This document shows, in pieces, positions 50,184-64,000 of a stretch of DNA of 64,000 bases (position 1 is its first letter; every line of letters starts with the position of its first letter). This DNA comes from an uncultured Acidimicrobiaceae bacterium (lineage in GTDB: Bacteria; Actinomycetota; Acidimicrobiia; Acidimicrobiales; Bog-793). Made by a program: the position numbers and the translations under genes. The stretch lies in NCBI GenBank assembly GCA_963761425.1, contig CAVXGQ010000005.1:60391-124390 (forward strand), written 5' to 3'. Under the pieces are notes generated by a model. It was not told where the DNA came from and did not search any database. It saw only the letters and a list, made by a program, of their open reading frames with translations.

Positions 50184-50200
50184 CCCCGCGCCGGGGAGGT

Positions 50201-50689: not shown

Positions 50690-50792
50690 GACCACCACGC
50701 TACCGGCGGGAGTCGGCGGACCCCGGCGAAGGCGACGCGACTATGGACCTCCCCCTCCTCGCCCTTCCCTGGGCATCGGATATCCTCGCTTC

Positions 50793-50874
50793 GGGTCGGT
50801 ACCCAAGCGGACAACGGGAGCAGACTGTAAATCTGCTGGCACTGCCTACGTAGGTTCAAATCCTACCCGGCCCA
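50793..50874 (+). tRNA. tRNA-Tyr (anticodon GTA), class II with long variable arm
   Basis: Hand-folded. Acceptor GGGTCGG/CCGGCCC with one G-T pair, 3-bp D stem CCC/GGG, anticodon stem GCAGA/TCTGC. Loop CTGTAAA with GTA at 50827-50829, variable arm GGCA-C-TGCC, T arm GTAGG-TTCAAAT-CCTAC, discriminator A. CCA is not encoded. Confidence 0.9.
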
Positions 50875-50975
50875 CCCGTTCTAACTACCTAGTCAGAGCA
50901 GGTGCCGACACCAGATAACGACACACAGAAAGCTGGATCGGTGCGGGTTGACCGCCAAACTGACCACCAAGCGGT

Positions 50976-52139
50976 TCAATTCCCGTCGGCTGCGCTGATC
51001 CTGCCGAGTGCGCGCTCGGTCGCGTCGGCCGCCTCTCGCATGGTCGCTGGCCACACGTGGGAGTAGGTGTCCATGGTGAGACGGAACGTCGAGTGCCCAA
51101 GGACTTCCATAGCGACCCGAGGATGCACGCCTTGCGCCAGGAGCAGCGTCGCGGCCGTGTGACGGCAATCGTAGAGACGGTGACCGGTGATGCCGGCTCG
51201 CTCCGACAATTTCGTGAACCACCTCGACAGGGCGCTCGACGATAGCGGGTGCCCCATTTCTCCAGTGAACACGAGGCCGCTGTCGTGCCATTCCGAGCCG
51301 GCCCGAAGGCGCTCCTCGAGTTGCGCCGTTCGGCGAGTGCGCAGCGCCGTGACGCATTGCAGCGGTAGGGCGATCGTGCGTCGCGAGCGATCCGTCTTCG
51401 GCGGCCCGATGCTCTCGCCTCCAGGTGCACGTCTGAACGCGCGTTGCACTCGGACACACGGGTCGGGCCCGTCGAGGTCGACGTCATCCCAGCTAAGAGC
51501 TCGCGCCTCGGCCGGCCGCAAACCGAGCGCCAGGGCGACCATGACGAAGGCACCGAGTCGATCGCCCCGTGCCTGTGAGAGAAGTCGGCCAACTTCGTCG
51601 TCGCTGAATGGTCGGATCTCCGCACGACGTACCGAGATCGGCTCGACGAGCATCGCGACATTGTCGTGCACGAGTCCCCACCGCTTCGCGACCGTCAATG
51701 CTGCGCGGAGGGTCGCGTGGACTAGGCGAACGGTGTCGTCGGCTACGCCCTTCGCTCGAGTCGTGTTGATGAGTCGTTCAATGTCCGCCGCGGTCAGCTT
51801 CGCTAACGGAATGCGACCGATAACCGGGTCGATGTGCCGCCTGATGTGGCTCTCGCAATTGCGCCAGTGGCCATAAGTGCGGCGAGGTTTCACGATTTCG
51901 AGGAGCCACCGATCGAGGAACTTGTCCACGCGGGCGCGCTCATCGAGAGCCGGCTGTCCTTCAGCCAAGGCGCGCTGTGCGCGCCGCAGTTTCGACATCG
52001 CTTCGGCGCGAGTGCGCCCGTAGAAGGACTTGCGCTTGCGTTTGCCGGCGGGCCCATAGCCGACACCGACCGAACCCTCCCAGCGACCATCCGCCCGCTT
52101 TCGGATGCCGCCCTCGCCCGCGCCCCTGCGCTTCGTCAC
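50976..52139 (-). CDS. tyrosine recombinase / phage-type integrase
   Basis: N-terminal arm-binding-like GGIRKRADGRWEGSVGVGYGPAGKRKRKSFYGRTRAEA. Catalytic ALGLRPAEARAL (Arg), HRLYDCRHTAATLLL (HxxR), LGHSTFRLTMDTYSHV (His...Tyr). GTG start 52139 overlaps the upstream stop (GTGA). Confidence 0.9.
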   Translation of the reverse strand: MTKRRGAGEGGIRKRADGRWEGSVGVGYGPAGKRKRKSFYGRTRAEAMSKLRRAQRALAEGQPALDERARVDKFLDRWLLEIVKPRRTYGHWRNCESHIRRHIDPVIGRIPLAKLTAADIERLINTTRAKGVADDTVRLVHATLRAALTVAKRWGLVHDNVAMLVEPISVRRAEIRPFSDDEVGRLLSQARGDRLGAFVMVALALGLRPAEARALSWDDVDLDGPDPCVRVQRAFRRAPGGESIGPPKTDRSRRTIALPLQCVTALRTRRTAQLEERLRAGSEWHDSGLVFTGEMGHPLSSSALSRWFTKLSERAGITGHRLYDCRHTAATLLLAQGVHPRVAMEVLGHSTFRLTMDTYSHVWPATMREAADATERALGRISAADGN

Positions 52140-52447
52140 CGTGGCCCCGCATTCGAGCTGGCGAGAGCCACGATGCCCTCGGCGAGCGCACGGCGAGCCT
52201 GCGGCCACGTCGCGAGCGTCGCGGCCCGCTCGAGCAGCGCTCGCAACTCCCCGAGCTGATCGGGCACGCTCATGAGCGGGGGCGCCGCGTCACCGACGAC
52301 TCGCTTATCGAGGAGCCTCTGCCGATAGGCGGCTTGGCGGTGCGCCGGCGAGCAGTAGGAAGGGGCGGGGCCTCGCGTAGAGGGGAGCGTCAGTTTGTTG
52401 CCGCAGTGGGCGCACCGAATGGTGCGGGTTCGGTCTTGGCGAGCCAT
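52136..52447 (-). CDS. small zinc-ribbon protein translationally coupled to the integrase (candidate excision/regulatory factor)
   Basis: MARQDRTRTIRCAHCGNKLTLPSTRGPAPSYCSPAHRQAAYRQR... shows a CxxC...CxxxH motif. Its stop TGA overlaps the integrase GTG. Confidence 0.6.
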   Translation of the reverse strand: MARQDRTRTIRCAHCGNKLTLPSTRGPAPSYCSPAHRQAAYRQRLLDKRVVGDAAPPLMSVPDQLGELRALLERAATLATWPQARRALAEGIVALASSNAGPR

Positions 52448-52464
52448 ATACCCGTCACCATATT

Positions 52465-52530
52465 CGTCACGCTTCCGCGTGACGCGGATGCTCGGTTGCG
52501 CTCCGTTGCCCTCACCTGGCCGGGTGAGGG
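52465..52530. promoter_or_regulatory. two perfect 8-bp-arm palindromes in a divergent intergenic region
   Basis: CGTCACGC-ttcc-GCGTGACG (52465-52484) and CCCTCACC-tggccg-GGTGAGGG (52509-52530). They lie between divergently oriented genes 52136..52447(-) and 52576..53001(+). Confidence 0.5.
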
Positions 52531-52575
52531 AACGTCTACCGATTGCCGAGCTCGTGCGCGAGGTAGGTTCGTGCG

Positions 52576-53001
52576 ATGAGCGAACCGCCGTGGTGGGCAA
52601 GTGTCACGCCCCACACGGTTTTGGCCAGTTGTCGCCTCAACGGCGCGACACAGGAGAATGAGGTCGGAGCTCTAACCGTCGACGGAACGGGTTTCCAGTA
52701 TCGCAGCAAATCGACATTTGGCATCGGTTGGCCCGAGGTCGGCAGGCTCGACATCACCGAGAACCGAATTCCCCACGGTCGCAAGCGCAGCGCTTTCGGA
52801 TTCGGGTTGATCGGGCTCGCGGTCGTCGGAGCCACCGTCGCCCACAACCGCGGGGTTCGCCCCGTTGAGATCGTTCGTGTCGTAACGATCACGACCAGGA
52901 CCGGCCAGCAATTCCACTTCATTCCGGGGAACTCCTCGCTGGCAGCGATGGCACCGACCCTCGGACTCATCGAGCTGATCCGGTCTCACGGTTCAAACTG
53001 A
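52576..53001 (+). CDS. hypothetical protein with one central hydrophobic segment
   Basis: 141-aa ORF with ordinary composition and a putative TM segment AFGFGLIGLAVVGATVA. No recognisable motif. Confidence 0.45.
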   Translation: MSEPPWWASVTPHTVLASCRLNGATQENEVGALTVDGTGFQYRSKSTFGIGWPEVGRLDITENRIPHGRKRSAFGFGLIGLAVVGATVAHNRGVRPVEIVRVVTITTRTGQQFHFIPGNSSLAAMAPTLGLIELIRSHGSN

Positions 53002-53245
53002 CCCAGTACCGAAGGCACCGGCGATCACGCTTGGACCGCCCCGGCTCGTGACGATGACTTCCTCGGCGACGCGCGCTGGGCCAATGACGAGCACGCCTCA
53101 TGCGGCACTCACGACCGGCTTCTCGGTCACGTGCCAGCCGGTAAGCAGGTGACCCTCGCATCGGACGGGGGTCAGCCTCCAGCTGAGGTTGACAGTTGGA
53201 TTGCTCGCGCCTCGGGTGGGCGCCGCTCTGCGAGTCGTGACGAGC

Positions 53246-53482
53246 TCAGTCGTTCGCCAGGATCCCGTGGATGCGCCCGAGCGAGAGCCCGGCCGCCCGC
53301 GCCACCTGACGGTGCGAGACGAGGTAGAAGTCGATCGCCTCTCTGACCGCCGCGTCCCGCTCATCGATCCGCTTCCGCACGTCGAGCCCGGCTACCCGCA
53401 CCGCCTCGGCCAGCTCGGTGACCCTCCGGAGCACCTCCGCCTGCGGGACTTCGGCAGGGGTGTCCGTCTCACCGGACATCAT
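53246..53482 (-). CDS. small helix-turn-helix protein
   Basis: The C-terminal VSHRQVARAAGLSLGRIHGILAND resembles an HTH. ATG 53482 is preferred over the GTG 53503 given by the ORF track, because the upstream extension only re-translates a DNA repeat (MSGETDG/MSGETD). Confidence 0.55.
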   Translation of the reverse strand: MMSGETDTPAEVPQAEVLRRVTELAEAVRVAGLDVRKRIDERDAAVREAIDFYLVSHRQVARAAGLSLGRIHGILAND

Positions 53483-53608
53483 GCCGTCCGTCTCACCGGA
53501 CACCTCCCGTCCGTCTCACCGGACACCCCCCGTCCGTCGCGACGGACTGTTTCGCATCGGCCCAGGTTATGACATGACCGTCGCGACGGACGCGGTGTCT
53601 GTCGCGAC
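53462..53608. repeat. operator-like repeat array: 3x GTCCGTCTCACCGGACA plus 3x GTCGCGAC palindromes
   Basis: 17-mers at 53462-53478, 53486-53502 and 53509-53525, each an internal GTCCG/CGGAC inverted repeat. 16-bp perfect palindrome GTCCGTCGCGACGGAC at 53532-53547. CCGTCGCGACGG at 53578-53589. GTCGCGAC at 53601-53608. Confidence 0.8.
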
Positions 53609-53754
53609 GGGCGGTGACGGAGGGTGAGAAAGAACGCCGGGCGGGTGAAGGATTGAGGCGTGCGCCTCGTACGGAGTACGGGCGTCTTCCCGTTCGGCTG
53701 AGCAGCGTGCAGCTGCAGCCTTGCGACTCGTGCTCCGAGGGACTCCCCATCGGT

Positions 53755-54045
53755 TCAGTATTCGATCGCCGCAGCCACGACTGCAGTCGCCCAATCTTCC
53801 GCGGTCGGGAGGGCGCAGTGCCGCGTCGTCTCCAGCGAGCGATGGCCGGCGAGCTCCGCCACGAGCACGACGTCAGCCCCAGACCGGACGAGCCGCGTCA
53901 GGAAGGTGTGACGCAGCACGTGCGGCGACCACCGTGCATTCGCGATCAGCGCTACACGACCGCGCGAGGGCCTTGTCCACAGCATCGGATCATCGTCTCT
54001 GAAGCTGATCGAACTGCCAGCCGGGCGTGCCTCTCTGGTCTCCAC
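53755..54045 (-). pseudogene. C-terminal fragment of a tyrosine recombinase
   Basis: HVLRHTFLTRLVRSGADVVLVAELAGHRSLETTRHC retains HxxR and the GH motif. Cys sits where the catalytic Tyr is expected, and there is no N-terminal domain. Confidence 0.65.
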
Positions 54046-54060
54046 TCCCGTGTCAGAGTG

Positions 54061-54498
54061 TCAGCCGCGAGCAGAGGTGGCGGAGCTGTGACTGGGAAGC
54101 TTCGCCACGGCCAGTGCGAGGAGCGTCATGGCGAGCGTCCAGGCGATCCAGGCGACGATGGCCAAGCGGGCGTAGTCCCAACCGGTGCCTGAATGGATGA
54201 CCGGCGCCGGTCCCAAGTCGTAGGCGCGAGGCGGGTTGTCCGCCGAAATGACCTCGACGCAGTCGTTGCCAGGGACGCCTTTCCAGCCAGGACTCGAGCC
54301 GGCGAGCTCCACCTTGTCAGAGCTCGAATGGGTTGGGGCGACGCCCGCGCACGAGGTTGACGGCCACGCACCCACGAGGGCAACTACGCCACCAACGACG
54401 AACAGTCCGAACAGGGCGGCCGCGATGGCAGCGAGAACCTGGTGGGGATAGGTGCGCCTCACCGCCGGCGAGCCTTCGCCCGAGCCAGCAGTTGTCAT
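54061..54498 (-). CDS. membrane protein, two TM segments flanking a ~70-aa extracytoplasmic loop
   Basis: VLAAIAAALFGLFVVGGVVALVGAW and LAIVAWIAWTLAMTLLALAVA. No other motif. Confidence 0.5.
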   Translation of the reverse strand: MTTAGSGEGSPAVRRTYPHQVLAAIAAALFGLFVVGGVVALVGAWPSTSCAGVAPTHSSSDKVELAGSSPGWKGVPGNDCVEVISADNPPRAYDLGPAPVIHSGTGWDYARLAIVAWIAWTLAMTLLALAVAKLPSHSSATSARG

Positions 54499-54720
54499 CG
54501 GGCCCAGTGTACGGCGCGGCTTTCGTGACGGATGGGCCCCGCGCGGGACAACGCTGAGCGGGCGCGAGCGCGCAAGCCGTGTGCAGCGGGCAACGCCATC
54601 GAGTCGTTCGCCGAGTGCGGCTGGTCTCCGCCGGATGGTGGTCGCATGGAAGCTGGGGCCGACTCGGCTGCCGCTCCGGCGGTGACGAGCTCGGCGGCTG
54701 ACCTCTCCGCCGGCACGTGC

Positions 54721-55140
54721 TTAGGTGCGGGCCACCTCGAGCCCGAGCGTTTCGGCAGCCGCGCACAGACCTGCGTCGCCGGCGACGAACACGAGGTCGT
54801 CGGCCTGGACGAGTTCCGCTGCGGCTAGGTGGATCGCGTCATAGCCGCGGAGCGCTAAGCGTTCGGCGAGAGCGCCGGCGCGGCGCACGAGCAGATCGGA
54901 GATCTCAAGGAGGTCAAGCTGCTCGTAGAGACCGACGAGCTTCGTCACTGCGTCTCGCAGCGCCGACTCAGCGATGTGGCCCTTTCGAGCAGCCTGAGCG
55001 AGAGCCGCGTGGCCTTCGGCGTAAACGATCCGCGCGCTCGTGAGGCGGTCCGCTTCCAGCCACCGGCGCCGAGCCGCGTCCGAACCGGGCTCAGCGACGA
55101 TCAGCGGAACGATCGCCGAGGTGTCGAAGTAGGCGATCAC
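54721..55140 (-). CDS. vapC: PIN-domain ribonuclease toxin VapC
   Basis: MIAYFDTSAIVPL (first acidic residue) ...YDAIHLAAA... is PIN layout. 4-nt overlap with the upstream antitoxin gene. Confidence 0.85.
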   Translation of the reverse strand: MIAYFDTSAIVPLIVAEPGSDAARRRWLEADRLTSARIVYAEGHAALAQAARKGHIAESALRDAVTKLVGLYEQLDLLEISDLLVRRAGALAERLALRGYDAIHLAAAELVQADDLVFVAGDAGLCAAAETLGLEVART

Positions 55141-55430
55141 CGCCGCTGGTCGGACACCAGCGGGCTCACCGGTCGAGTCGCTGGGATCAGCTCGTCCGGG
55201 ACGCTCCGACGGGCCGTCCGGGCCGGCGAGGCGACACCATTGGTAATCAGACGATCGAGCACCATGGGTTTGCCGTTCTCTCGGGCGAGGGGCACGACTC
55301 GCGCGACAGCGCGGCCGTGGTCCGTGACGACGAGCTCACTGCCTGTGCGAACTCGGTGCAGGTAACGACTCAGATTGTTCTTCAGCTCCCGAACTCCGAC
55401 CTCCACAGCCACCTCCCTCTGGGGCCACAT
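55137..55430 (-). CDS. Phd/YefM-type antitoxin (VapB role)
   Basis: VGVRELKNNLSRYLHRVRTGSELVVTDHGRAVARVVP is the typical Phd/YefM N-terminal domain. Confidence 0.8.
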   Translation of the reverse strand: MWPQREVAVEVGVRELKNNLSRYLHRVRTGSELVVTDHGRAVARVVPLARENGKPMVLDRLITNGVASPARTARRSVPDELIPATRPVSPLVSDQRR

Positions 55431-55500
55431 TCTGCGACCATTGTAGCTACAATTCTCTAGTCCCCGACGGCGCGGACCACGTTGCCGAGGGGTACCGCGG

Positions 55501-55512
55501 CCTAGTTAGGAG
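55501..55512 (+). repeat. left copy of exact 12-bp direct repeat CCTAGTTAGGAG
   Basis: Identical 12-mer at 57265-57276. An AT-rich, CTAG-containing word that looks rare in this GC-rich window. This copy also supplies the AGGAGG Shine-Dalgarno for the recombinase gene. Confidence 0.8.
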
Positions 55513-55519
55513 GTGCGGG

Positions 55520-57214
55520 ATGTCTGACCTCTCCGGGATCGAGCCAGGCGGTCTCTCGTCGAGCGCGTGGAGGTCGCGCTATGGCGATCTGAGCGCGGAC
55601 GAAGTCGCCCTGCTCGGCGAGTTGGCGTGCTCGGCCTTCCTCGGACAGGGGCTGTCTGACCGCACCGCCCGCACCTACGCCCAGGTGGTCGCCGCTGGCG
55701 AACGGTACTGCCGGACGCGCCACAGCACGCTGCTCGCCGCTGACGCCGGATTGATCGGCGGCTTCGCGGCGACCCTGACGCTCCCGAGACGAGCGCAGGC
55801 GCGAAGTGCGCTTGCCAGCTGGTGGCGCTTTCTCGGTCGCGCTTCGCCTCCGCTCGATCCACTTCGCGTAGCGGGTCGCCAATCCGATCTCCCGTCGAAG
55901 CGCCGTTCACGAGGTCACGCGGCCGGGCGACCGCACCGTGGCGATAGCTGGGACCTCGAGGGGTCAGCTACCAGCGAGCGGATCCGACGCGCCCGTGAAT
56001 CGATGCGACGTGCCGGCGTCAATCCGACCTCGACACGTCAATACTGTCGGTACCTCGCCGCCGCGGAGAGGTGGTGCAGCCAGCGCGACCTCGACCTCGC
56101 AACGATCGAGGGCGAGGCGCTTGAGCAACTCGCGGAGACCGTCCCGAGGTCGACTAGTTCCCGTCGTGCGCTGCGTTCGGCGTTGCGACATTACTTCCAT
56201 GCCCTCGGACGATCGGAACCACCTCTGTGGGCGGTGCGGGTTCCGAAAAAGCGACGCATGATCGCGAGACCGCTTGAGCCGGACGAGCTCAGGCGCTTGC
56301 TGGCCGTCGTCCGCGAGGACGGCGGTAGACGGGGCTTTGCCGTGATGCTCGGCCTGTTTCTCGGCCTCCGTCGTTTCGAGATCGCGACGGTTCGCTTCCG
56401 AGATTTCGAAGGCGGCTGGCTCGAGCTCATCGGCAAGGGCGATCTTCCAGCCCGACTTCCGGTTCATCCCGAAGTTACGCGGAATCTCGCCCGCATCCCG
56501 AAGACCTCGGCATTTGTGTTTCCGGGCCGCCTGTCTGGTCACGCGTCTCCGGCGACGATCTGGACCTGGGTCGTTCAACTCGCCGAGGAGGCTCGAATCG
56601 ACGGCCTGACGACGCACCGCCTCCGGCACACGTGCCTCACATACGCGAACGACGCGACAAAGGATCTCCGCGCCGTGCAAGAGTTCGCTCGCCACGAACG
56701 ACCCGAGACAACTGCCGGGTACACGCGAGCGTCGGCCGACCGACTCCTCGAGGTTATGCGCGCGCTCGGCGGCGCCTACGGCGTAACTGCTCCACGTGAG
56801 CGGCCTGGCCGGGCGTCGTCCTCGAAGTGGTCGGCAACGCTCGAGGACATCGCTGCCGGAGTCGACGGGAATCAATACGTCGACGACTGGTCAGCTCTCG
56901 GCAACCTGCTTGCTGGTCGATCCGGGTGGCACCTATGTGTCGAATCGCCGGGGCCTGAGCTCCGTTTTGTCTACGAGGACGCTCCACTCTGGGTCGGCGT
57001 CGACAACGGCTGGCAGGTCAACCCGCATCGCTACTGCCTCTTCGTCGAGCTTGATCCCGATGACCGAGAGGTCGTCGGCTGCTGGCACTTCTCTGACATC
57101 GAGAGCCTCGGAGTCATGCTGTCGACCTTCGAGACGGGCGACGTGAGCGCGTTGCCGCCGACGTTTGTGCTTGGGCTGTCCTCCAGCGGTCAGCCCGACG
57201 TCGTTGCGGTGTGA
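55520..57214 (+). CDS. atypical tyrosine recombinase: duplicated N-terminal core-binding-like domains, catalytic domain, ~130-aa C-terminal extension
   Basis: Catalytic GLRRFEI (Arg), HRLRHTCLTYA (HxxR), ARHERPETTAGYT (His...Tyr). Two SAM-like segments (LSDRTARTYAQVVAAGERYC... and STRQYCRYLAAAERWC...). The tail from about residue 430 has no recognisable motif. Confidence 0.85.
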   Translation: MSDLSGIEPGGLSSSAWRSRYGDLSADEVALLGELACSAFLGQGLSDRTARTYAQVVAAGERYCRTRHSTLLAADAGLIGGFAATLTLPRRAQARSALASWWRFLGRASPPLDPLRVAGRQSDLPSKRRSRGHAAGRPHRGDSWDLEGSATSERIRRARESMRRAGVNPTSTRQYCRYLAAAERWCSQRDLDLATIEGEALEQLAETVPRSTSSRRALRSALRHYFHALGRSEPPLWAVRVPKKRRMIARPLEPDELRRLLAVVREDGGRRGFAVMLGLFLGLRRFEIATVRFRDFEGGWLELIGKGDLPARLPVHPEVTRNLARIPKTSAFVFPGRLSGHASPATIWTWVVQLAEEARIDGLTTHRLRHTCLTYANDATKDLRAVQEFARHERPETTAGYTRASADRLLEVMRALGGAYGVTAPRERPGRASSSKWSATLEDIAAGVDGNQYVDDWSALGNLLAGRSGWHLCVESPGPELRFVYEDAPLWVGVDNGWQVNPHRYCLFVELDPDDREVVGCWHFSDIESLGVMLSTFETGDVSALPPTFVLGLSSSGQPDVVAV

Positions 57215-57226
57215 CCGAATCGGGGT

Positions 57227-57256
57227 GCCTCGGCGGCGTCTCCGCGCCGCCGAGGC
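57227..57256. terminator. 12-bp-stem GC hairpin between convergent genes
   Basis: GCCTCGGCGGCG-tctccg-CGCCGCCGAGGC, 13 nt after the recombinase stop. No T-tract, which is common in high-GC actinobacteria. Confidence 0.55.
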
Positions 57257-57264
57257 GGTCGCCA

Positions 57265-57276
57265 CCTAGTTAGGAG
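57265..57276 (+). repeat. right copy of exact 12-bp direct repeat CCTAGTTAGGAG
   Basis: Identical to 55501-55512. The two copies bracket only the recombinase gene and its hairpin. Confidence 0.8.
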
Positions 57277-57303
57277 ATGACGACGCGGCCGACGATACCC
57301 GCG

Positions 57304-59238
57304 TCAGCCCTCGAGTTCGGTGAGCCTCGCGTCGAGTTGCGCGATCGCGGCATCGAGCACGGCGTGGACCGCGGGCCAGTCCCATGCCGCGAGCTGCTCG
57401 TGCCCCCAGACGCGACCAGCGACGTCGACGAAGCGACGCCTGACGACGGTGCGCGTCCTTCGCGGCTGAGGCTCACCACGCACGATTCGCAACACGTCTC
57501 GCATCGTGGGGCGCGCGGCGATCTCCTCCCTGGCATCCATCGGTCTCAACACGCTGACGTCGGCGAGCACAGCCGAAGGAGGTCCGCCCGGATGCGCCCG
57601 GACCCGAGCTCGCAACTTCGACAGCTCGGCGCGCCGTCTTCGGAGCGCACGGATTTCTGCTTTTCGCTGCCGCTCGAGCGCTTCCAGCGACCGGCGATAT
57701 TCACGCTTCGCCGCCGCGGCGTCGCGCGCCGCGGCTTCGCGGTCCCGTTTGTCCCGCGCCAGCTCAGCGTCCCGACTCGCCTTCGCCTCGTCGAGTTCGG
57801 CGCGCAGAGAGCGGGCGAAGGCGACCTCGCGCGAAGCCACCGGGATGATCTCTTCCAGCGCGCCCCGGCTTCTCGCCGCGCTCGCCTGTCGCCGGACTTT
57901 CGAGAGTCGCGCTCGCAGCGCGGCGGCCTCGGCGCGTTCGGTCCGTGGCACCGTCTTGATTGTCGCAACAGCCTGATCGATCGTCGTCACAAGGCGCGCC
58001 CGTTCTCCCGTGAGCTCGAGGTCCTCATGAATGGCTGCCTGGCGCCGCACCTTCACCTCTCCACGGATCCGCTCGCGAGACTCGGTCCGGGCTCTTGCTG
58101 CCTCCGCGAGCTCCCGGAGGCCGGGCACGTCTCCGAGCTGAGCAGCGATGTCGTCAATGGGCACATGCCAGTCGGGATCGACGAGGCCCACGACGGTTTC
58201 GGTGACCGTGAGGACGTCCGTGCCAATGAAGTAGGCGAGGCCGCGGAGGTCGACACCGCTCTCGAGCCCATAGCGCGCCGCCCGTCCCAGGGTGGCGAGT
58301 TCGAGCATCCGCAGGTCGACCCGATGGCGCCCCTCGTCGGTTAGGACATGGGCGACCCGCTCAAGGATGCGGATGCAGCTTTCGCCGACCCTGTCCGTGA
58401 CCGGCCTGTAACTGTCGAGCGATAGGGTCCCTGCACCCGTTCCCGCGAGTTCTGCCGCGCGCAACCGAGCGGGGAGGTCAGGGATGAGAACCTCGTCGAC
58501 GCAGATGGTCAGGGCCCGCCGGAAGTAGGGCTTCGCGACGACGGTCGCCCCGTCGCGGGGATTCCATGTCGCCATCACGGTGCCGGCGATCCGTACGGCG
58601 GTTCCCTCGACAGGGACGACCGGGTCGCCGTGGAAGAGGATCTGCGCTTGCCGCCGGACGTCCGTATCAGCTTCGCCGAGTTCGTCTAGGCAAACGAACG
58701 GGAGCGCCAGGTGTGACGCTGGCTCGAGCGCCCAGCCACCGTCGACTTGCCAGCGCCGGCCGAAGATCTCGCCGCGAGCCAGCGCGGGGACGTCGAGGAT
58801 CGCCTCCCTCCCGAGCCCAAGCGCCCGAGCGAGCAGCTCCGCCGCCGCCGTCTTGCCTCGTCCGAGCGCGCCGAAGGCGAAGAGCGCCGGGTGGAAGGCC
58901 CGATCGGGGTACAGACGTCGAGCCACAATGAGGTCTGCTGCCAGTCGACAGAATGCGCCCAGCGCCGGCGAGGGCCCGAAGATGGCCTCCACGGCCTCCT
59001 CGAATGGCCCTTGAGGCTCGCGGACCAGGGACCGCGCTGCGGCCCGGCCCGCGTTGGTGAGTTGCGGTCGGTTCTTGGGACCGGTGACGAGACCAGCAGC
59101 ACGAAGCTTCGCGAGCCCCTCAGTGACCGATCTAGACGGCCGCCCACTCGCCGCGGCAATCTCCGTCGGCGTAGCCGTTCCCCCGAGATCAGCGAGCGCC
59201 TGCAGGACGTCGTCCCGCGCCGTCGGGCGGCTCACCAT
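57304..59238 (-). CDS. orphan wHTH / P-loop NTPase / coiled-coil protein (644 aa)
   Basis: N-terminal MarR-like wHTH DDVLQALADLGGTATPTEIAAASGRPSRSVTEGLAKLRAAGLV. Walker A-like FGALGRGKTAAAELLAR and Walker B-like LPFVCLDELGE. A long Arg/Glu/Ala-rich heptad-like region runs from about residue 400 to 560. Confidence 0.7.
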   Translation of the reverse strand: MVSRPTARDDVLQALADLGGTATPTEIAAASGRPSRSVTEGLAKLRAAGLVTGPKNRPQLTNAGRAAARSLVREPQGPFEEAVEAIFGPSPALGAFCRLAADLIVARRLYPDRAFHPALFAFGALGRGKTAAAELLARALGLGREAILDVPALARGEIFGRRWQVDGGWALEPASHLALPFVCLDELGEADTDVRRQAQILFHGDPVVPVEGTAVRIAGTVMATWNPRDGATVVAKPYFRRALTICVDEVLIPDLPARLRAAELAGTGAGTLSLDSYRPVTDRVGESCIRILERVAHVLTDEGRHRVDLRMLELATLGRAARYGLESGVDLRGLAYFIGTDVLTVTETVVGLVDPDWHVPIDDIAAQLGDVPGLRELAEAARARTESRERIRGEVKVRRQAAIHEDLELTGERARLVTTIDQAVATIKTVPRTERAEAAALRARLSKVRRQASAARSRGALEEIIPVASREVAFARSLRAELDEAKASRDAELARDKRDREAAARDAAAAKREYRRSLEALERQRKAEIRALRRRRAELSKLRARVRAHPGGPPSAVLADVSVLRPMDAREEIAARPTMRDVLRIVRGEPQPRRTRTVVRRRFVDVAGRVWGHEQLAAWDWPAVHAVLDAAIAQLDARLTELEG

Positions 59239-59284
59239 CGCATGCCGGTGCCTCTCTCGGCGGTTGCCGGTGGTGATGGATGTG

Positions 59285-59390
59285 TTGCCGATCGCCCGTC
59301 TTCGCTTGCCGATCGCATTGCGGGGAGCACGAAGCGGCCACCGATGACCAGGACATATGCGCGGAGAGCTGGAGAACTATTGCCGATCGC
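59285..59390 (+). repeat. three direct copies of TTGCCGATCGC upstream of the wHTH/P-loop gene
   Basis: Exact 11-mers at 59285-59295, 59306-59316 and 59380-59390, 47-152 bp upstream of the ATG at 59238. Each contains the palindrome CGATCG. Confidence 0.75.
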
Positions 59391-59583
59391 CGCCTCGGGG
59401 GCCCCGTCAGGCGTCGACTGGGTTCGAAGGAGGCTGTACAGAGCTCGACCCCGGATTGCGCACCGCGCGTCCGTCGCGACAGACGACTCGCGAGGCCCCG
59501 CGGAGCTCGTGACCGCGCGACCTGCGCGGCCGCGGACATAGGCGCCAACACAACATTGGACATGACACCTTGGGTAGGGAGAA

Positions 59584-60069
59584 ACCTGTCCAACCTGTCC
59601 ACCTGTCCGCGCGGGGGCGCCAACCGTGCCTTGACTAGGAGCTTTCGCTCTCGTGGCGCGCGGATAAGTTGGCCGACGCGCGGACAGGTTGAGTTCCTCG
59701 CGGGCAGGTTCACCCTTGGTCACCGGGGCCGAGCTACGACGTCGTGAAGCCCAGAAGTGGATGACCACCAGGGAGAACGCCGCTGCGGACGCCGCTGCGC
59801 CGCGCGGACAGGTTCCCCCCTGCGCGGACAGGTTCCCCCCTTGCGTAACCCGATTGACTGTCCCGCGCGGGGATCGGCGAGGGTTCCATGGTGCAACCTG
59901 TCCGCGCTGGAAGCGGCCGCTGACCAGGGAACACGCCGCGGGCGCGGACAGAGTGGCCTCTTCGCGGACAGGTCGCGGACAGGTTGAACCGCAACCTGTC
60001 CGCGGTCTGCATAGGGGGTGACCAGGATAAATGCAGCCGCAGAGCCCCGCGCGGACAGGTTGGACAGGT
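59584..60069. repeat. iteron-like field: 12 exact GGACAGGT/ACCTGTCC cores plus degenerate copies; extended consensus GCGCGGACAGGTT
   Basis: Forward cores start at 59682, 59806, 59826, 59966, 59977, 60053 and 60062. Reverse cores start at 59584, 59593, 59601, 59896 and 59994. Degenerate copies lie near 59658, 59699, 59858 and 59946. Sub-arrays have 8-9, 11 and 20-bp periods. A 12-bp-arm palindrome CGCGGACAGGTT-gaaccgc-AACCTGTCCGCG spans 59974-60004. Confidence 0.9.
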
Positions 60070-60132
60070 TTCCCTTTCCTCTCGCGAAAACAGAGAGGGA
60101 AGAAGGAACGGGTACCTGCCAGCCCGGAGCAA

Positions 60133-61599
60133 TCAACACTGCAGCTGTGGCTGCTCATCAGGATCGGCGCCGATCAAGAGAAGTCGCGACCGGTCTCTTC
60201 CGCGCCGGCCGAGTTCGTGAACGGGCACGCCGGCGGCACGCAGGTGCGGGGCGACCCGTCTGAGGCTGTTAGCCGTTTGCTGGGGCCCGGCCGGCCAGCC
60301 GCGGGGCGTTTGCCCCTGGTCGCGCCGCCGGTTGAGCTCCTCGAGGAGCGCCGCGGCCGTGCCTCTCCATGGTCCCTTTTCCCGGACGAAGTCAACCACC
60401 GCCTGAGCGAGCGCAGACGATTCCAGGACTGCAGACGTCGCGCTCTCTCGGGCAGAGTCGAGCGCACTTACCATCGTGCCCGGAGGCAATCGCAATCCTT
60501 CCTCGGCGGCGACTGCAAAGCGCGCAGCGTCAGCCATGCGGGGCGGTCGCACCAGCTCGACCGATAAAAGGTGACGCAGTCCAGAGGCAAGACCATCTAG
60601 CAGGACGCCGAACATCTGTCCCGAGTCACGTCCGAAGTCTGAGCGCAGTCGCCGTTCGTCGAGACGCTGGTCATCGGGAATTCGCGGTGCCTCAACAACG
60701 TAGGAACGATCGAGCAGATCGGGCCGGCTTGCCGCCTCGGCTATCCCAGTGAGGACAACCGGCCGCGCGCTGGCGAAGACTTCCTCCTCTCGGTCTGCGT
60801 AGAGAGTGCGCGTGCCGAACCCCTCCCCACCCGCAACACGGCACAGCGCGTCGGAGAGACGGGGCTCCATCCCCGACACGTTGTCGAACCCGAGGACATG
60901 GCCGTTGTACGCCGCGATGACCAGATCACGCTCGTCGTGAGGGAGCGCCCGCAACGGCGCCTCGGCTGGGTCCACGAGGAGACGACAGAAGCGAGCCGTC
61001 GTCGTCTTCGCTGAACCCTGTTCGCCGTAGATGACGAGCAGCGGGTAAGGACCGCTTCCCGCGAGCGCGTTCACGAGCCACGAGAGCACGAGAGGGAATC
61101 CCTCATCGCTCACGTGCAGGTACCTGCGAAGTGTGTCAACCGAGCCGCCTCGTGTCGGCGCTGGAAGCGGCCGTAGCGTTCGGGGCCGTCGAAACGGAAC
61201 GGGCGGCGCCTCGACAACCGTCCAACCGGCTGGCGTAACCACCACGGCGGAGCCGCGCTCGTCGCCCAGATCGATGATGACCTGATTCTCGGATCGGGCG
61301 ACCCGGAGAAAGACCTCGTGCTGGCCACCCTCGTGGCATGCGATCACCTCGAGCGTGCGTTGGGCGTCGCCCCAGCTCTGCCCGGCAATGACCCGCCTCT
61401 TCCCTCCTGTGGCGAGGCGATGAGCGTGGAATGCTCCGACGAATTGACGCTCGAACGCCTTTGACTCCAAGGGGAACGTGCGCACTGATTCAATAATCGG
61501 CGTCCCCACGGTGGCAAATGCGTCCCCGGAAGTGTTGTGGAAGAGCTCGAGGGAGCCCTGCTCGACCAGCGCCTCAGCGAACGCGACAACCTCCTCCAC
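60133..61599 (-). CDS. P-loop ATPase, probable replicative (SF3/primase-associated helicase-like) protein
   Basis: Walker A YGEQGSAKTTTARF and Walker B-like HVLGFDNVS. Overlaps the upstream Toprim primase gene by 26 nt. The family assignment is an inference from context. Confidence 0.65.
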   Translation of the reverse strand: MEEVVAFAEALVEQGSLELFHNTSGDAFATVGTPIIESVRTFPLESKAFERQFVGAFHAHRLATGGKRRVIAGQSWGDAQRTLEVIACHEGGQHEVFLRVARSENQVIIDLGDERGSAVVVTPAGWTVVEAPPVPFRRPRTLRPLPAPTRGGSVDTLRRYLHVSDEGFPLVLSWLVNALAGSGPYPLLVIYGEQGSAKTTTARFCRLLVDPAEAPLRALPHDERDLVIAAYNGHVLGFDNVSGMEPRLSDALCRVAGGEGFGTRTLYADREEEVFASARPVVLTGIAEAASRPDLLDRSYVVEAPRIPDDQRLDERRLRSDFGRDSGQMFGVLLDGLASGLRHLLSVELVRPPRMADAARFAVAAEEGLRLPPGTMVSALDSARESATSAVLESSALAQAVVDFVREKGPWRGTAAALLEELNRRRDQGQTPRGWPAGPQQTANSLRRVAPHLRAAGVPVHELGRRGRDRSRLLLIGADPDEQPQLQC

Positions 61600-62569
61600 G
61601 ACCCTCGGTTCCGGATCCGGCCGCGTCCGCGATGTCCCTCGGACGGGTCTCGGCGGCTGCCGGGACCGAATCGGCTGCGTCGACGCGCCGCCAGAGCTCG
61701 TCGAGCGTGCCTCTGCCGTCGAGGTAGTCGCTCACGTCCCCGTGTTCTGGCAGCTCGGGGAACGAGACGATGCGGACGTCATCGATCACCGTCCGCAGTT
61801 GCGTTGCGACCTTCAGCGCGTGTTTCCGCCCGGGGGCGTCATTGTCCTCGAGCACGGCCGCCTGCCGGAATCCCCGGAGCGCGTTCAGATCCTGAGAGGT
61901 GAACGTCGGAGAGCTCGCGAAGTGCGTCGTTGTGACGAGCCCGAGCGCCGCGAGGCGGTCGGCGTCCTTTTCGCCCTCGGTGAAGACGAGCATCCCGTCG
62001 GCTTCGCGGCCATCTCGGGCTGCGATCACCTCCGGCAGGCGGTAGATGGCGCGCTCGTCGCCGGCGTCATATCGGATCGCACCGGGACGTTCGGGATCCG
62101 GGCGTCGAATGGCGAAGGTCTTTTGGTGCTCACCGTTCGCGGCCTTGCGCTCGAAACGGACCTTTTCGCAGAGCAGGCGGTCGTCGGCACCGCGGTACTC
62201 GTAATAGGCGACCGCTTGCCAACCGTCGCCGCGGGTCCATGGTCTCGGCAGCTCAGATCGCGCAGCGAGCGTCCCCACGCCATTGCTCGAGACGGGGCCG
62301 GCGCCGGCTTCTGGCCGGTACACCGGGGGCCGGCGAACGTCGAGCGCGCTCGACGCGGCGCCGGCGCCGTCGGCCTTCAGTTGTGCCGTGACGTACTCGT
62401 CGAGTGCGTGCACGGGAATGCGCCGTGCCCGGCCGACCTTGAAGCTTCGAAGCTGTCCCGAATTGATGAGGTCGTAGATGGTCGGCCGGCTTAGGTGGAG
62501 GCGTGCGGCCGCCTCATCCACCGTCAACAGCAGCCGAGGACCGTGAACGTCTCCTGGTGTGTCTGTCAT
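61574..62569 (-). CDS. excisionase-type HTH fused to a Toprim (DnaG-like) primase domain
   Basis: HTH LLLTVDEAAARLHLSRPTIYDLINSGQLRSFKVGRARRIPVHAL. Toprim LVFTEGEKDADRLAALGL (Glu) and AAVLEDNDAPGRKHA (DxD), then LPEHGDVSDYL. Confidence 0.8.
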   Translation of the reverse strand: MTDTPGDVHGPRLLLTVDEAAARLHLSRPTIYDLINSGQLRSFKVGRARRIPVHALDEYVTAQLKADGAGAASSALDVRRPPVYRPEAGAGPVSSNGVGTLAARSELPRPWTRGDGWQAVAYYEYRGADDRLLCEKVRFERKAANGEHQKTFAIRRPDPERPGAIRYDAGDERAIYRLPEVIAARDGREADGMLVFTEGEKDADRLAALGLVTTTHFASSPTFTSQDLNALRGFRQAAVLEDNDAPGRKHALKVATQLRTVIDDVRIVSFPELPEHGDVSDYLDGRGTLDELWRRVDAADSVPAAAETRPRDIADAAGSGTEGRGGGCRVR

Positions 62570-62651
62570 GCGCGCGAGGGTTACTCCAATGGCGAGCGCG
62601 ATGGCGGATCATGCGCCGAGCCGATGTTGGATGGCATGTAACATTGTCACA

Positions 62652-62984
62652 ATGGCTGGTCGTAGTGGTGCTGCCACGCTGGAACCACTCGACATCGCGA
62701 GCGCACGGGCGCGCCTCGGTCTCAGCCTTCGCGAGCTCGGTGCCGAGGTCGGCGTCAGCAGGGCAACCGTCCAGCGATGGGAGCGGCGAGAGGCGTCGGT
62801 TCCAGATTCCCTGGAGCTCACGCTCCGCCGTCTCCTCGCGGCGGGAAAGGAGTCTCCCGAAGAGCGCGTATTGCGAATGGTCCGCCAGGCAGGCGCCGCC
62901 ACGCGCTCCGAGCTCACCGTTGCTTGCTCCGATCGGCGCGAACGACGCGCTCTCTCCCGTCTCCTCGCGGCGGAGCGCTGGTTA
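62652..62984 (+). CDS. poly-HTH DNA-binding protein, N-terminal segment (before an apparent -1 frame change)
   Basis: MAGRSGAATLEPLDIASARARLGLSLRELGAEVGVSRATVQRWERREASVP (XRE-type HTH), then ERVLRMVRQAGAATRSELTVACSDRRERRALSRLLAAER (wHTH-like). Downstream of about 62980 this frame becomes Arg/Cys-rich nonsense while the next frame continues the domain. Confidence 0.6.
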
Positions 62985-64000
62985 CGGCCGCGGTGCCCCG
63001 TCGGGACGCGCGAGGCCGTCACTATTTGCGCGAGGCCATCTGTCTGGCAGGCAGTTCGAGGGCTGCCGCCCTGCCGATTGTTTCGGGCCCAGAACTTGCT
63101 CGCGCGCGCAGGGGCGCCAGCCTGTCCATCTTCGAGCTGGCGGCGCGCCTTGGCGTCGCGCCATCGACATTGCGCGTCTGGGAAGCGACGTCGCCGCCAG
63201 CAGCTCGAGTCGCCAACCTTGCCGCGGCGCTGCGCCTCGAGGGGGGCGAACTCCGCGCCGCTCGAAAAGCGGCCGGCCTGTCCTTGCGCCAGCTTGGCGC
63301 GCGTGCCGGCGTAACCCTGTCAGTCGTCGACGCATGGGAGAGAGGCAAGCGGCCCATCCCTGCGCGTCGACTCGTCGCTCTCAGAGGAGCCCTAGCCGTG
63401 GCGCAAGAGTCTGCAGATGAGCGCCCCGCGGGGCTCGAAGAACGGATCGTCGAACTTGTGCGGCGCCGGCCAGGAAGGACGCCTGCAGACGTTCGCCACG
63501 AGCTGCGCAAGCGTCGGGCCGGTCGTTATCGCACTGGTGCCGAAACAGACCGCGCGCTCCGTCGGCTACTTCGGGGCGGTCGGATCGTCGCGGCAGAGGT
63601 GGCGATAGTCGACGGACAAGGCCGCGCGCGAACGCGCTCCCGCCTCTATGTGCCGCACGCCCGTCCGGCGTCTCGTGGTCTGAAGCTCACCGGTGATGAG
63701 CTCGGGGCGAGACGTGTTGGAGCGGGGCTAAGTCAGCAGCGACTCGGATCGGCCCTGGGGAAGACCGGCGGATTCGTGGGGTATTGGGAGCGGCGCGGAT
63801 CAGCCCCCGTCCCCGAGCCTTGGGCGGCGCGACTGCTCGAGGAACTCGCCAGCACGCGGAATCGCCCCGATCCGACCGAGTTGGCTCGTGCCGGGATCGT
63901 CTCCGCAGTAGCACAACAGCCGGGATTGTCCCGCTGGCGGCTCCAAAAGGTTGTCGGGAATGGCAATTCGGCGCGCCGCGCGCTGCACGAACTCCTGCAT
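62978..64000 (+). CDS. poly-HTH DNA-binding protein, continuation (open at window end)
   Basis: Absent from the ORF track because there is no stop before 64000. My translation reads ...LVTAAVPRRDARGRHYL..GPELARARRGASLSIFELAARLGVAPSTLRVWE..GGELRAARKAAGLSLRQLGARAGVTLSVVDAWERGKRPIP. It continues ..ERIVELVRRRPGRTPADVRHEL...ALRRLLRGGRIVAAEVAIVDGQGRARTRSRLYV..GDELGARRVGAGLSQQRLGSALGKTGGFVGYWERRGSAPVP.. This gives three more XRE-HTH units and at least one more wHTH-like unit. Confidence 0.6.
   Translation, partial: MVTAAVPRRDARGRHYLREAICLAGSSRAAALPIVSGPELARARRGASLSIFELAARLGVAPSTLRVWEATSPPAARVANLAAALRLEGGELRAARKAAGLSLRQLGARAGVTLSVVDAWERGKRPIPARRLVALRGALAVAQESADERPAGLEERIVELVRRRPGRTPADVRHELRKRRAGRYRTGAETDRALRRLLRGGRIVAAEVAIVDGQGRARTRSRLYVPHARPASRGLKLTGDELGARRVGAGLSQQRLGSALGKTGGFVGYWERRGSAPVPEPWAARLLEELASTRNRPDPTELARAGIVSAVAQQPGLSRWRLQKVVGNGNSARRALHELLH

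Follow-up and report, generated by a model that had tools for sequence, protein, structure and literature searches.

We analysed a 64,000-nucleotide stretch of DNA (the window) from an uncultured Acidimicrobiaceae bacterium (GenBank assembly GCA_963761425.1, contig CAVXGQ010000005.1), and in particular the genes that extend from its tRNA-Tyr gene to its end. Following the tRNA are a tyrosine integrase, a toxin-antitoxin pair, a large tyrosine recombinase, an ATPase that we call p644, an array of short repeats (iterons), a helicase, a primase, and a regulator with multiple helix-turn-helix (HTH) units. A first-pass annotation, made from the letters alone, had described an island anchored at the tRNA-Tyr gene with its own replication module. 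We conclude, with a probability of roughly 0.72, that a single integrative mobile element of about 13.6 kb occupies the region, that it is inserted at tRNA-Tyr, and that it belongs to a family of elements of 13-16 kb from uncultured high-GC Actinomycetota. That it is an island is supported by the integrase, by a shift in GC content at third codon positions (GC3), by arm-type sites, and by homologous elements bounded by direct repeats of tRNA 3' ends; in this respect, the earlier proposal stands. The relatives that we use for comparison are metagenome loci labelled L081-L088, L170-L178 and L181-L183, which were found via the helicase, p644 and the large recombinase. Positions are those of the window unless a related locus is named.

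Integration site and replication module

The integration target, a tRNA-Tyr(GTA) gene at 50793-50876 (+ strand; ARAGORN; Rfam tRNA, 53.9 bits), is the single tRNA in the window according to both ARAGORN and Rfam. An open reading frame (ORF) for a tyrosine integrase (50976-52208, - strand; Pfam Phage_integrase, 4e-19, and Phage_int_SAM_3; phrog_1 integrase, 2e-73) terminates 100 bp from the tRNA 3' end, as had been noted before. Judged from relatives, its true start is probably near 52139, which would give a protein of about 387 amino acids, and the product shares 35-47% identity with the L173, L178 and L085 terminal integrases. Between the tRNA and the integrase stop codon lies a tandem motif, GGTGGTCAGTTTGGCGGTCAAC (GGTGGTCA-type; 50946-50968, - strand). 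The tandem motif GGTGGTCAGTTnGGTGGTCAA appears at this same window position and just inside both ends of L178 (205-230 and 14527-14550), L170 (~4355-4380 and 20136-20161), L173 (4147 and 18725) and L175. These motifs are probably arm-type recombinase or excisionase (Int/Xis) sites.

The first-pass annotation had also reported visibly lower GC beyond the tRNA. This does not apply to bulk GC, which is 0.63-0.71 on either side of tRNA-Tyr; GC3 alone falls: it is ~0.93 in nuoN and the DUF520 gene and ~0.75-0.80 in the genes of the block, beginning with the integrase. The fall at the tRNA indicates that the block is compositionally foreign. On the other side of the tRNA (48609-50698), the end of the nuo operon (nuoN, 524 amino acids) is followed by a DUF520/YajQ gene that converges on tRNA-Tyr, and GC3 there is 0.93-0.94. 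By its best NuoN matches (Acidimicrobiia/Acidimicrobiales genomes, 52-57% identity), the host is probably an Acidimicrobiia-like member of the Actinomycetota.

The element would begin at 50877, at the 3' end of tRNA-Tyr, with attL at that point. Its other end is predicted to fall just outside the window: the window portion of the multi-HTH regulator aligns to residues 1-439 of a 535-amino-acid homologue in L087, which places the end of the gene at ~64.29 kb and attR at ~64.4 kb, for a total size of ~13.6 kb.

The predicted replication module occupies the distal part of the block. An HTH_17 (excisionase/AlpA-like) domain is fused in frame to a Toprim primase (61574-62569, - strand), as shown by matches to Pfam HTH_17 (2e-15), the TIGR01764 excisionase family (2e-15), phrog_239 DNA primase/helicase (9e-16) and phrog_6088 primase. 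The fusion differs from the arrangement in relatives, where HTH_17 is a separate small gene. The HTH_17 part corresponds to 62390-62569, and its counterpart in relatives encodes 70-90 amino acids. The next gene (60133-61599, - strand) encodes a P-loop ATPase with the Walker A motif GEQGSAKT; its ORF overlaps that of the primase by 26 nt, and its own GTG start overlaps the primase stop.

Sequence searches with this ATPase (Pfam, NCBIfam, PADLOC and PDB profiles) returned nothing beyond Walker A matches, and fold comparison alone placed it. An AlphaFold (AF2) model built from 34 homologues has a predicted local distance difference test score (pLDDT) of 91 and a predicted template-modelling score (pTM) of 0.89. 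The best match in a Foldseek comparison with the PDB is the primase-helicase of the staphylococcal pathogenicity island (SaPI) SaPI5 (7OLA; E 6e-7, TMq 0.53, 471 aligned columns), and the next matches are African swine fever virus PrimPol, the NrS-1 helicase region, poxvirus E5/D5 helicases and SaPI PriRep1. Among predicted viral structures (BFVD), template-modelling scores of 0.85-0.86 were obtained to an uncultured-phage protein and to the helicase of Microbacterium phage Zeta1847; many VirE-, DUF927- and D5-type primase-helicases of phages come after these. Because of these structural matches to SaPI5, PrimPol, D5-type and phage primase-helicases, the modelled ATPase is assigned as a superfamily 3 (SF3; D5/SaPI-Rep-like) helicase, a type that serves mobile elements as initiator and helicase in one. 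In the model, the last 90 residues form a helix-strand-helix-helix-hairpin that resembles a winged helix.

The helicase has 348 detectable homologues in many phyla, at 40-52% identity. Most of them are 550-800 amino acids long and carry an N-terminal primase, which is either Prim-Pol plus PriCT_1 or Toprim/DUF3854. By tblastn, the family is present on 29 PLSDB plasmids, 21 of them from Streptomyces, and some of these plasmids are only 12-20 kb long (for example, 18-kb and 20-kb Methylobacterium plasmids and a 12-kb Methanothrix plasmid). It was found in one sequenced phage, yet in 173 IMG/VR contigs. Homologues with 32-38% identity over 91% of the query also reside on the archaeal plasmid NC_016637.1 (Methanothrix harundinacea, 12 kb) and on plasmids of the cyanobacterium Stanieria, and therefore this type of Rep protein crosses domains.

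Divergent from the primase operon is the regulator gene (62652-64000, + strand), which encodes at least four XRE-type HTH units and runs off the window. It starts at ~62652-62703, leaving 83-134 bp between its start and that of the operon. Intact homologues are 500-756 amino acids long.

Downstream of the helicase gene, the 894 bp from 59239 to 60132 form a predicted non-coding origin region. A 308-amino-acid ORF spans this interval, but its GC is equal across the three codon phases, unlike that of every flanking gene, and on the strength of this flat pattern the interval behaves as non-coding. Within it, GGACAGGT occurs in 12 exact copies at 59584-60069 (486 bp), with 1 copy elsewhere in the 64 kb; the chance expectation is 2.2 per window, and none of 100 shuffles reached 13. 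When up to two mismatches are allowed, GCGGACAGGT has 15-16 copies in the same interval, on both strands and often spaced by 9-11 or 20 nt. The iterons begin 64 bp past the helicase stop codon, and the least GC-rich 40-nt patches edge the array, at 59545-59594 (47.5-50% GC) and 60055-60114 (50% GC). The four components of the module in the first-pass annotation (an HTH-Toprim primase, an overlapping P-loop ATPase, a gene-free stretch of ~900 bp packed with iterated motifs, and a divergent multi-HTH gene from 62652) are therefore borne out. The SaPI-like order in which it had placed them is in keeping with the best solved structural match of the helicase.

A family of elements with exchangeable replication cassettes

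The relatives share a backbone that reads, in order, multi-HTH regulator, HTH_17, Rep module, iterons, p644, large recombinase, second recombinase, zinc-ribbon protein, integrase and tRNA. The window has all of these in the family order, and tblastn identities of its backbone proteins to those of L081-L088, L170-L178 and L181 are 33-62%. The first-pass annotation had overlooked this conserved backbone, as well as the toxin-antitoxin pair, the exchange of Rep cassettes and the signs of decay discussed below.

The contigs that encode the closest helicase homologues (47-52% identity) shared a neighbourhood each time. A multi-XRE-HTH protein of 500-745 amino acids is encoded on the opposite strand, followed by the small HTH_17 gene (70-90 amino acids) and a Toprim-helicase fusion of 705-726 amino acids. 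Next come a gap of 390-880 bp and, in most loci, a p644 homologue of 666-688 amino acids, and then a tyrosine recombinase (577-618 amino acids), a second recombinase (314-381 amino acids) and the terminal integrase. L084 is an exception in that methylase and Eco57I-type genes occupy the place of the p644 homologue after the gap.

Searches with p644 and the large recombinase recovered L170-L178 and L181-L183, which have the same gene order with a different Rep cassette between HTH_17 and p644. In L173 (6574-8283) and L178 (2818-4562), the cassette encodes a DnaB-N-like protein of 161 amino acids and a helicase-like protein of 401-428 amino acids; in L170 (6761-9300), proteins of 182 and 664 amino acids; and in L181 (2688-4881), proteins of 140, 172 and 380 amino acids. 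In all, at least four unrelated Rep cassettes occur at this point, each with its own short-repeat array behind it, such as the 8-mers ACAGGCCA (10 copies in L170) and GCGCGAAA (6 copies in L173). The Rep module is a clear case of a cassette that is exchangeable at a fixed position in the backbone (replicon swapping).

In every helicase-bearing relative, iterons again lie directly after the helicase gene, with diverged sequence in L081, L084, L085 and L088: ACCGTCCGC is present in 11 copies in each of L085 and L088 and in 6 copies in L084, and ATCGTTCAC in 5 copies in L081. L085 is informative about the partner of these repeats. There, a methylase gene parts the p644 homologue from the iterons, which keep their place next to the helicase, and the region upstream of p644 has no array. 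This arrangement argues that the helicase, and not p644, is the iteron partner.

Boundaries are visible in L178, a soil-metagenome contig of 14.7 kb in which a 36-bp sequence is directly and perfectly repeated at 63-98 and 14592-14627. The copy at 14592-14627 forms the 3' end of an intact tRNA-Lys(CTT), and the element is 14.5 kb long. Its integrase stop faces that tRNA, as it does in the window, and 124 bp separate the end of its multi-HTH gene from the distal copy. Both ends of the L088 contig (14.4 kb) fall within a tRNA-3' repeat, of which they share 14 nt. In L085-L087, a tRNA-3' fragment lies ~150 bp beyond the multi-HTH gene, and in L081, L170 and L173, housekeeping genes come directly after it. 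We also considered whether L084-L088 might be circular contigs and rejected this idea, finding no terminal overlap of 15 nt or more.

No capsid, terminase, portal, FtsK/TraB, relaxase or Nudix family was matched among the window ORFs (Pfam, PHROG and NCBIfam) or in the complete relatives L178 and L088. The first-pass annotation had seen no capsid, terminase, TraB/FtsK-like or relaxase gene in its part of the sequence; since the complete relatives also lack them, the element is not an ordinary actinomycete integrative and conjugative element (AICE) or prophage. Text searches of the literature retrieved no description of this backbone.

Cargo differs among the loci. In relatives, defence-like cargo includes N6/N4 methyltransferases, an Eco57I-type enzyme of 1351 amino acids, a TIR_2 protein and a NACHT-like ATPase of 905 amino acids (L084, 7885-15935; L085, 5171-6379 and 13047-13997; L181, 5258-6553). 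The cargo of the window copy consists of the PIN/Phd pair and two ORFs without an assigned family.

Likeness to known elements and possible modes of life

The replication proteins of SaPIs are SF3 or SF6 self-loading helicases whose C-terminal winged helix recognizes 6-12 iterons, present in both orientations directly downstream of rep (PMC9371898). The window element resembles SaPIs and other phage-inducible chromosomal islands (PICIs) in having an integrase at one end, an xis-like HTH, a primase, an SF3 helicase with a C-terminal winged helix, and a size of ~14-15 kb. Iterons in both orientations likewise come directly after the helicase gene, with 12-16 copies here, and a divergent regulator faces the xis/pri/rep operon, although this last likeness is one of layout only. 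With respect to attachment sites of the SaPI type, the integrase adjoins tRNA-Tyr, and the 36-bp repeat pair is seen in L178 only. The differences are considerable. SaPI Rep proteins are 7-10% identical in sequence to the window helicase over the structural alignment, and the less GC-rich patches flank the array in the window, whereas they are central in SaPIs. The window element adds a winged-helix-turn-helix (wHTH)-AAA+ protein (p644), one or two extra tyrosine recombinases and a regulator with at least four HTH units, and its host is in the Actinomycetota. Moreover, terS, capsid-remodelling (cpm/ppi), capsid and interference genes were absent from the window and the complete relatives in the Pfam, PHROG and NCBIfam searches.

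Plasmids provide a second comparison. pFP11 and pFP1 have repA/iteron replication loci whose RepA proteins bind the iterons, and for replication of pWTY27 the genes repB (a primase-polymerase) and repA, together with an iteron sequence of 300 bp, are both necessary and sufficient, with RepA footprints on the repeats (PMC3583192). By tblastn, pFP11 (NC_006911) encodes a homologue of the window helicase that is 34% identical over residues 96-460 (E 5e-41). It follows a primase-polymerase gene, and ~550 bp downstream are about 10 copies of CAGGGACGCAC in both orientations; from its position, we infer that this homologue is pFP11 RepA. The likeness therefore extends to a primase gene, a Rep gene and an adjacent iteron region of 8-11-bp repeats in both orientations. 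Plasmids of the pFP11 type differ in being free and conjugative, 14-39 kb long, with traA/traB and par genes, and in having a Prim-Pol primase where the window has Toprim. Theta-replicating plasmids such as pFP11 are at least as typical a setting for this helicase family as satellites are.

AICEs are integrated at tRNA genes, replicate autonomously and have varied, unrelated Rep proteins (PMC2440964). Like pSAM2, SLP1 and pMEA300, the window element is actinobacterial, tRNA-integrated by a tyrosine integrase, within the 10-25-kb range and equipped with an excisionase, a replication module and an XRE-type regulator (PMC2440964). In contrast to them, it has a Toprim and SF3 theta-type module with iterons in place of RepSA or RepAM, and its host appears to be Acidimicrobiia-like and not a member of the Actinomycetales. 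No FtsK/SpoIIIE-type transfer, Nudix Pif or spd genes were found in the island ORFs and complete relatives, and without an FtsK-type transfer gene and a Nudix gene, the element falls outside the AICE definition. Similarly, the lack of packaging or hijacking genes places it outside the definitions of PICIs and of P4. The combination of an integrase, an AlpA-like protein and a primase is the 'Type C' pattern, which the authors of SatelliteFinder deemed insufficient (PMC10085698).

In organization, the element appears closest to tycheposons. These elements of Prochlorococcus and other marine bacteria have a tRNA-targeting tyrosine recombinase, swappable primase/helicase modules, a size of 10-20 kb and variable cargo; they have no conjugation genes, and most of them, as here, are without packaging genes (10.1101/2020.12.28.424599). 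The likeness is in organization only. Tycheposons belong to another phylum and have other hallmark genes, and a wHTH-AAA+ protein and a multi-HTH regulator were not reported there. P4 offers a further parallel, with no detectable sequence relationship beyond the fold class: the window shares with it an AlpA-type HTH, a primase plus SF3 helicase, iterons and a tRNA site, and relatives carry defence cargo, whereas no homologues of psu, delta, sid or epsilon were found (a PHROG scan matched integrase, HTH and primase families only). P4 itself is integrated at a tRNA gene; it encodes an HTH of the AlpA type and an SF3 helicase that is joined to a primase and has a C-terminal iteron-binding domain, and it has ori/crr iterons. 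By analogy, the replication module would be SaPI- or P4-like, and its Rep protein is of a family shared with pFP11-type theta plasmids.

These comparisons suggest how the element may work. The multi-HTH protein would repress the divergent operon, and upon derepression the HTH_17 domain and the integrase would excise the element at the tRNA repeat. The SF3 helicase would bind the iterons 3' of its own gene by means of its C-terminal winged helix, load itself and melt the origin; melting would probably occur in the less GC-rich patches on either side of the array. The Toprim primase would then prime synthesis, and the circle would replicate in theta mode with host polymerase. The PIN/Phd pair would stabilize the element. 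As no transfer or packaging machinery is encoded, spread would depend on a helper (a phage or conjugative element) or on other routes.

Several findings weigh against this reading of the region. The multi-HTH gene switches frame exactly at 62972 and is colinear in two frames with the 535-amino-acid L087 protein; Toprim and helicase lie in different frames (the change is at 61632-61673), where relatives have a single ORF; and the second recombinase is cut to its last 56-89 residues. The copy may thus be partly decayed and perhaps non-functional, or the assembly may contain indel errors. No second copy of the tRNA-Tyr 3' end (...GGTTCAAATCCTACCCGGCCCACC) is present within the window, which leaves attR unseen. 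An exact pattern of 45 nt taken from the end of the window had no match in a metagenome contig collection, and exact look-ups with the window primase and helicase gave zero matching records. For an empty tRNA-Tyr site, a scan with NuoN gave only Acidimicrobiia metagenome-assembled genomes at 52-57% identity, which are non-syntenic, and in these Acidimicrobiia or Acidimicrobiales genomes a tRNA near nuoN is absent. Among five relatives, no clean co-variation was apparent between the winged helix of the helicase and the iteron sequence; the winged-helix domain is more diverged than the ATPase core in all pairs compared. Finally, p644 and the large recombinase have no assigned role in the proposed mechanism, which leaves it incomplete.

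Among other explanations, the region could be a defective, decaying remnant that no longer regulates, replicates or moves, which is compatible with either of the two origins considered next. We regard this as a substantial possibility, though short of an even chance. The frame change in the regulator, that between primase and helicase (domains that every close relative has in fused form) and the reduced second recombinase are as expected of a remnant, but the other backbone ORFs are all full length and the iteron array is intact. In addition, separate pri and rep genes are normal in SaPIs, and the helicase has its own GTG overlapping the primase stop, so the split need not disable the module; the frameshift in the regulator could reflect true decay or an indel in the assembly, as single-base indels may be metagenome assembly errors. 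As to origin, the element might be a true phage satellite, either PICI/SaPI-like or minimalist in the manner of PICMIs (minimalist islands of the phage-inducible chromosomal type), with a helper actinophage that relieves the repressor and whose capsids package the excised and replicated element. The order of integrase, regulator, xis-pri-rep and ori and the size of 13-15 kb match those of SaPIs (PMC9371898), the best solved structure for the helicase is SaPI5 PriRep, the complete relatives lack conjugation genes, and relatives carry defence-type cargo (methylases, an Eco57I-type enzyme and a TIR protein). Minimalist satellites that lack capsid-remodelling genes are known (PMC10803314). Against these points, terS, capsid, portal, head-tail and known interference genes were not found in the window or the complete relatives, p644 has no relative in 50,697 INPHARED phage records or in IMG/VR, the helicase matches one sequenced phage versus 29 plasmids, and the Type C gene set alone is considered insufficient (PMC10085698). 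A satellite is therefore possible but, in our judgement, unlikely.

We hold as equally tentative an origin as an integrated, plasmid-like, mobilizable element, that is, an AICE that lost or never had a transfer gene. Once excised, it would replicate in theta mode, and a co-resident conjugative element, TraB-type or other, would move it in trans. Plasmids of Streptomyces, Methylobacterium, Stanieria and Methanothrix carry the helicase family, rep/iteron loci of the pFP11 type have been proven to be plasmid replicons, AICEs are likewise tRNA-integrated and autonomous with varied Rep proteins (PMC2440964), and a toxin-antitoxin pair together with recombinases able to resolve multimers are typical plasmid maintenance functions. 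However, no FtsK/SpoIIIE, Nudix or relaxase gene was found, no clt or oriT is recognizable, the p644 backbone is absent from 72,556 PLSDB plasmids, and a free plasmid form is not known. A further alternative is that the repeats at 59584-60069 are not an origin at all. They lie upstream of p644, which has an N-terminal winged helix, and could be an operator or partition site for that domain; alternatively, their 8-bp units recall the TraB recognition sites of pSVH1 clt, and they could be a clt-like site for a TraB-type translocase. Both roles seem improbable to us, because the L085 iterons adjoin the helicase and are split from the p644 homologue by the methylase gene, pFP11 has the same helicase-then-iterons arrangement without a p644 homologue, and an array likewise follows the Rep gene immediately in members that carry other Rep cassettes. 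Least probable of all, to the point that we give it little weight, is an ordinary AICE or prophage with its transfer or structural genes past the window end. The window does stop inside the multi-HTH gene, leaving the far end unseen, but this gene is terminal in every flanked relative, with an att copy or housekeeping genes within ~125-300 bp, and the complete relatives are 13-16 kb long.

The island and its replication module are well supported under our preferred reading of the region as one integrative mobile element. To our knowledge, self-replicating integrative elements free of transfer genes are almost unknown in Actinomycetota outside Streptomyces and are unknown in Acidimicrobiia-like lineages. 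Small elements of such kinds (satellites, tycheposons and mobilizable islands) are now coming to light as major vehicles for defence and niche genes. This locus yields a defined family with a recognizable backbone, and it is a clear example of replicon-cassette exchange at a fixed position. Cognate helicase/iteron pairs are directly testable, and high-GC bacteria that resist genetic work might gain replicons from them. Comparable element types offer no precedent for the wHTH-AAA+ protein or the large recombinase, both of which are absent from sequenced plasmids and phages. We speculate, with odds that we consider low, that the element belongs to an undescribed family of helper-dependent, satellite-like or tycheposon-like actinobacterial elements of 13-16 kb that integrate at tRNA genes, with a swappable replicon and a conserved core consisting of the wHTH-AAA+-coiled-coil protein, the recombinase of 560-630 amino acids and the giant multi-HTH regulator. 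If so, this core, to which the second recombinase and terminal integrase are often added, might be a new excision, induction or hijacking apparatus.

p644, recombinases and cargo genes

The p644 gene (57304-59238, - strand), the marker of the family backbone, encodes a protein that opens with a MarR-like winged helix; an AAA_5/MoxR-type AAA+ ATPase comes next, and a long coiled coil and a small domain at the C-terminus complete it. Its Walker A (GRGKT) and Walker B (CLDELGE) motifs were identified by alignment, and Pfam matches to the wHTH are weak. Pfam AAA_5 was matched by 23 of 50 family members, and a profile of the family matches midasin AAA modules (2e-13) and also ClpC/ClpB. The family has 421 representatives in 1.84 billion clusters. 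The AF2 model of p644 has a pLDDT of 67, with the ATPase core below 50, and is confident for the wHTH and coiled coil only.

The large tyrosine recombinase (55520-57214, + strand; 564 amino acids; Pfam Phage_integrase, 7e-13, and Phage_int_SAM_1) has SAM-like N-terminal domains, a catalytic domain and a C-terminal extension of ~150 amino acids. Homologues of 555-626 amino acids at 36-62% identity lie beside the p644 homologue in L081, L085, L088, L170, L174, L178 and L181, and one homologue is labelled Acidimicrobiales. The recombinase gene is co-oriented with p644 in L081, L085 and L170, and has the opposite orientation in L088 and the window. In the window, the gene is flanked at 55496-55515 and 57260-57279 by a direct repeat, C(G/C)C..CCTAGTTAGGAG(G/A)TG. 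An invertible recombinase segment is not supported, as this repeat is direct and no inverted repeats were seen. A defence-system reading of p644 and the recombinase was likewise rejected, given zero PADLOC matches. As a guess, the two proteins might act in multimer resolution or have an accessory role in excision.

The second tyrosine recombinase is present as a C-terminal stub (53758-54024, - strand), apparently a pseudogene, in which Pfam Phage_integrase matches only the last 40 residues. The stub aligns to residues 240-322 of a 322-amino-acid intact homologue and to residues 325-380 of a 381-amino-acid one. Upstream of the integrase gene, adjoining and overlapping it, is a gene for a zinc-ribbon protein (CxxC...YCSPAHRQAAYRQR; 52136-52600, - strand), whose start is likely near 52447. 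It is a conserved integrase partner: homologues at 45-48% identity lie directly upstream of the integrase in L170, L172, L173, L174, L175 and L178. No Pfam family matched this protein.

The toxin-antitoxin pair consists of a VapC-like PIN-domain toxin (54721-55140, - strand; Pfam PIN, 1.5e-9) and a Phd/YefM-type antitoxin (55137-55430, - strand; PhdYeFM_antitox, 1.2e-9), whose genes overlap by 4 nt. Their homologues in L081 are 64% and 59% identical, respectively. A 141-amino-acid ORF with a coding-like GC phase pattern (52576-53001, + strand) is probable cargo; it had no family match in Pfam, PHROG, NCBIfam or PADLOC and no homologue in related loci. A hydrophobic ORF of 145 amino acids (54061-54498, - strand) is a weak gene call, with no family match in Pfam, PHROG or NCBIfam and no homologue in relatives.

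The remaining gene (53246-53503, - strand) encodes a small protein of 85 amino acids with a C-terminal HTH-like segment. It has the highest GC3 in the island, and a homologue with 63% identity lies beside the toxin-antitoxin pair of L081. Its 5' end and upstream region are covered by six 16-bp palindrome-like sites, GTCCGTC-NN-GACGGAC, spaced ~23 bp apart (53462-53612; Tandem Repeats Finder period, 23), which are separate from the origin iterons. One copy only, GTCCGTCGCGACGGAC at 53532, is a perfect palindrome, and a seventh site lies upstream of p644 (59469-59484). The pattern has 11 matches versus 3.2 expected, a number reached in 0 of 100 shuffles, and the sites form a putative shared operator set. 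The same tandem DNA repeat also yields a duplicated N-terminus, MSGETDG-MMSGETDT, in the 85-amino-acid protein.

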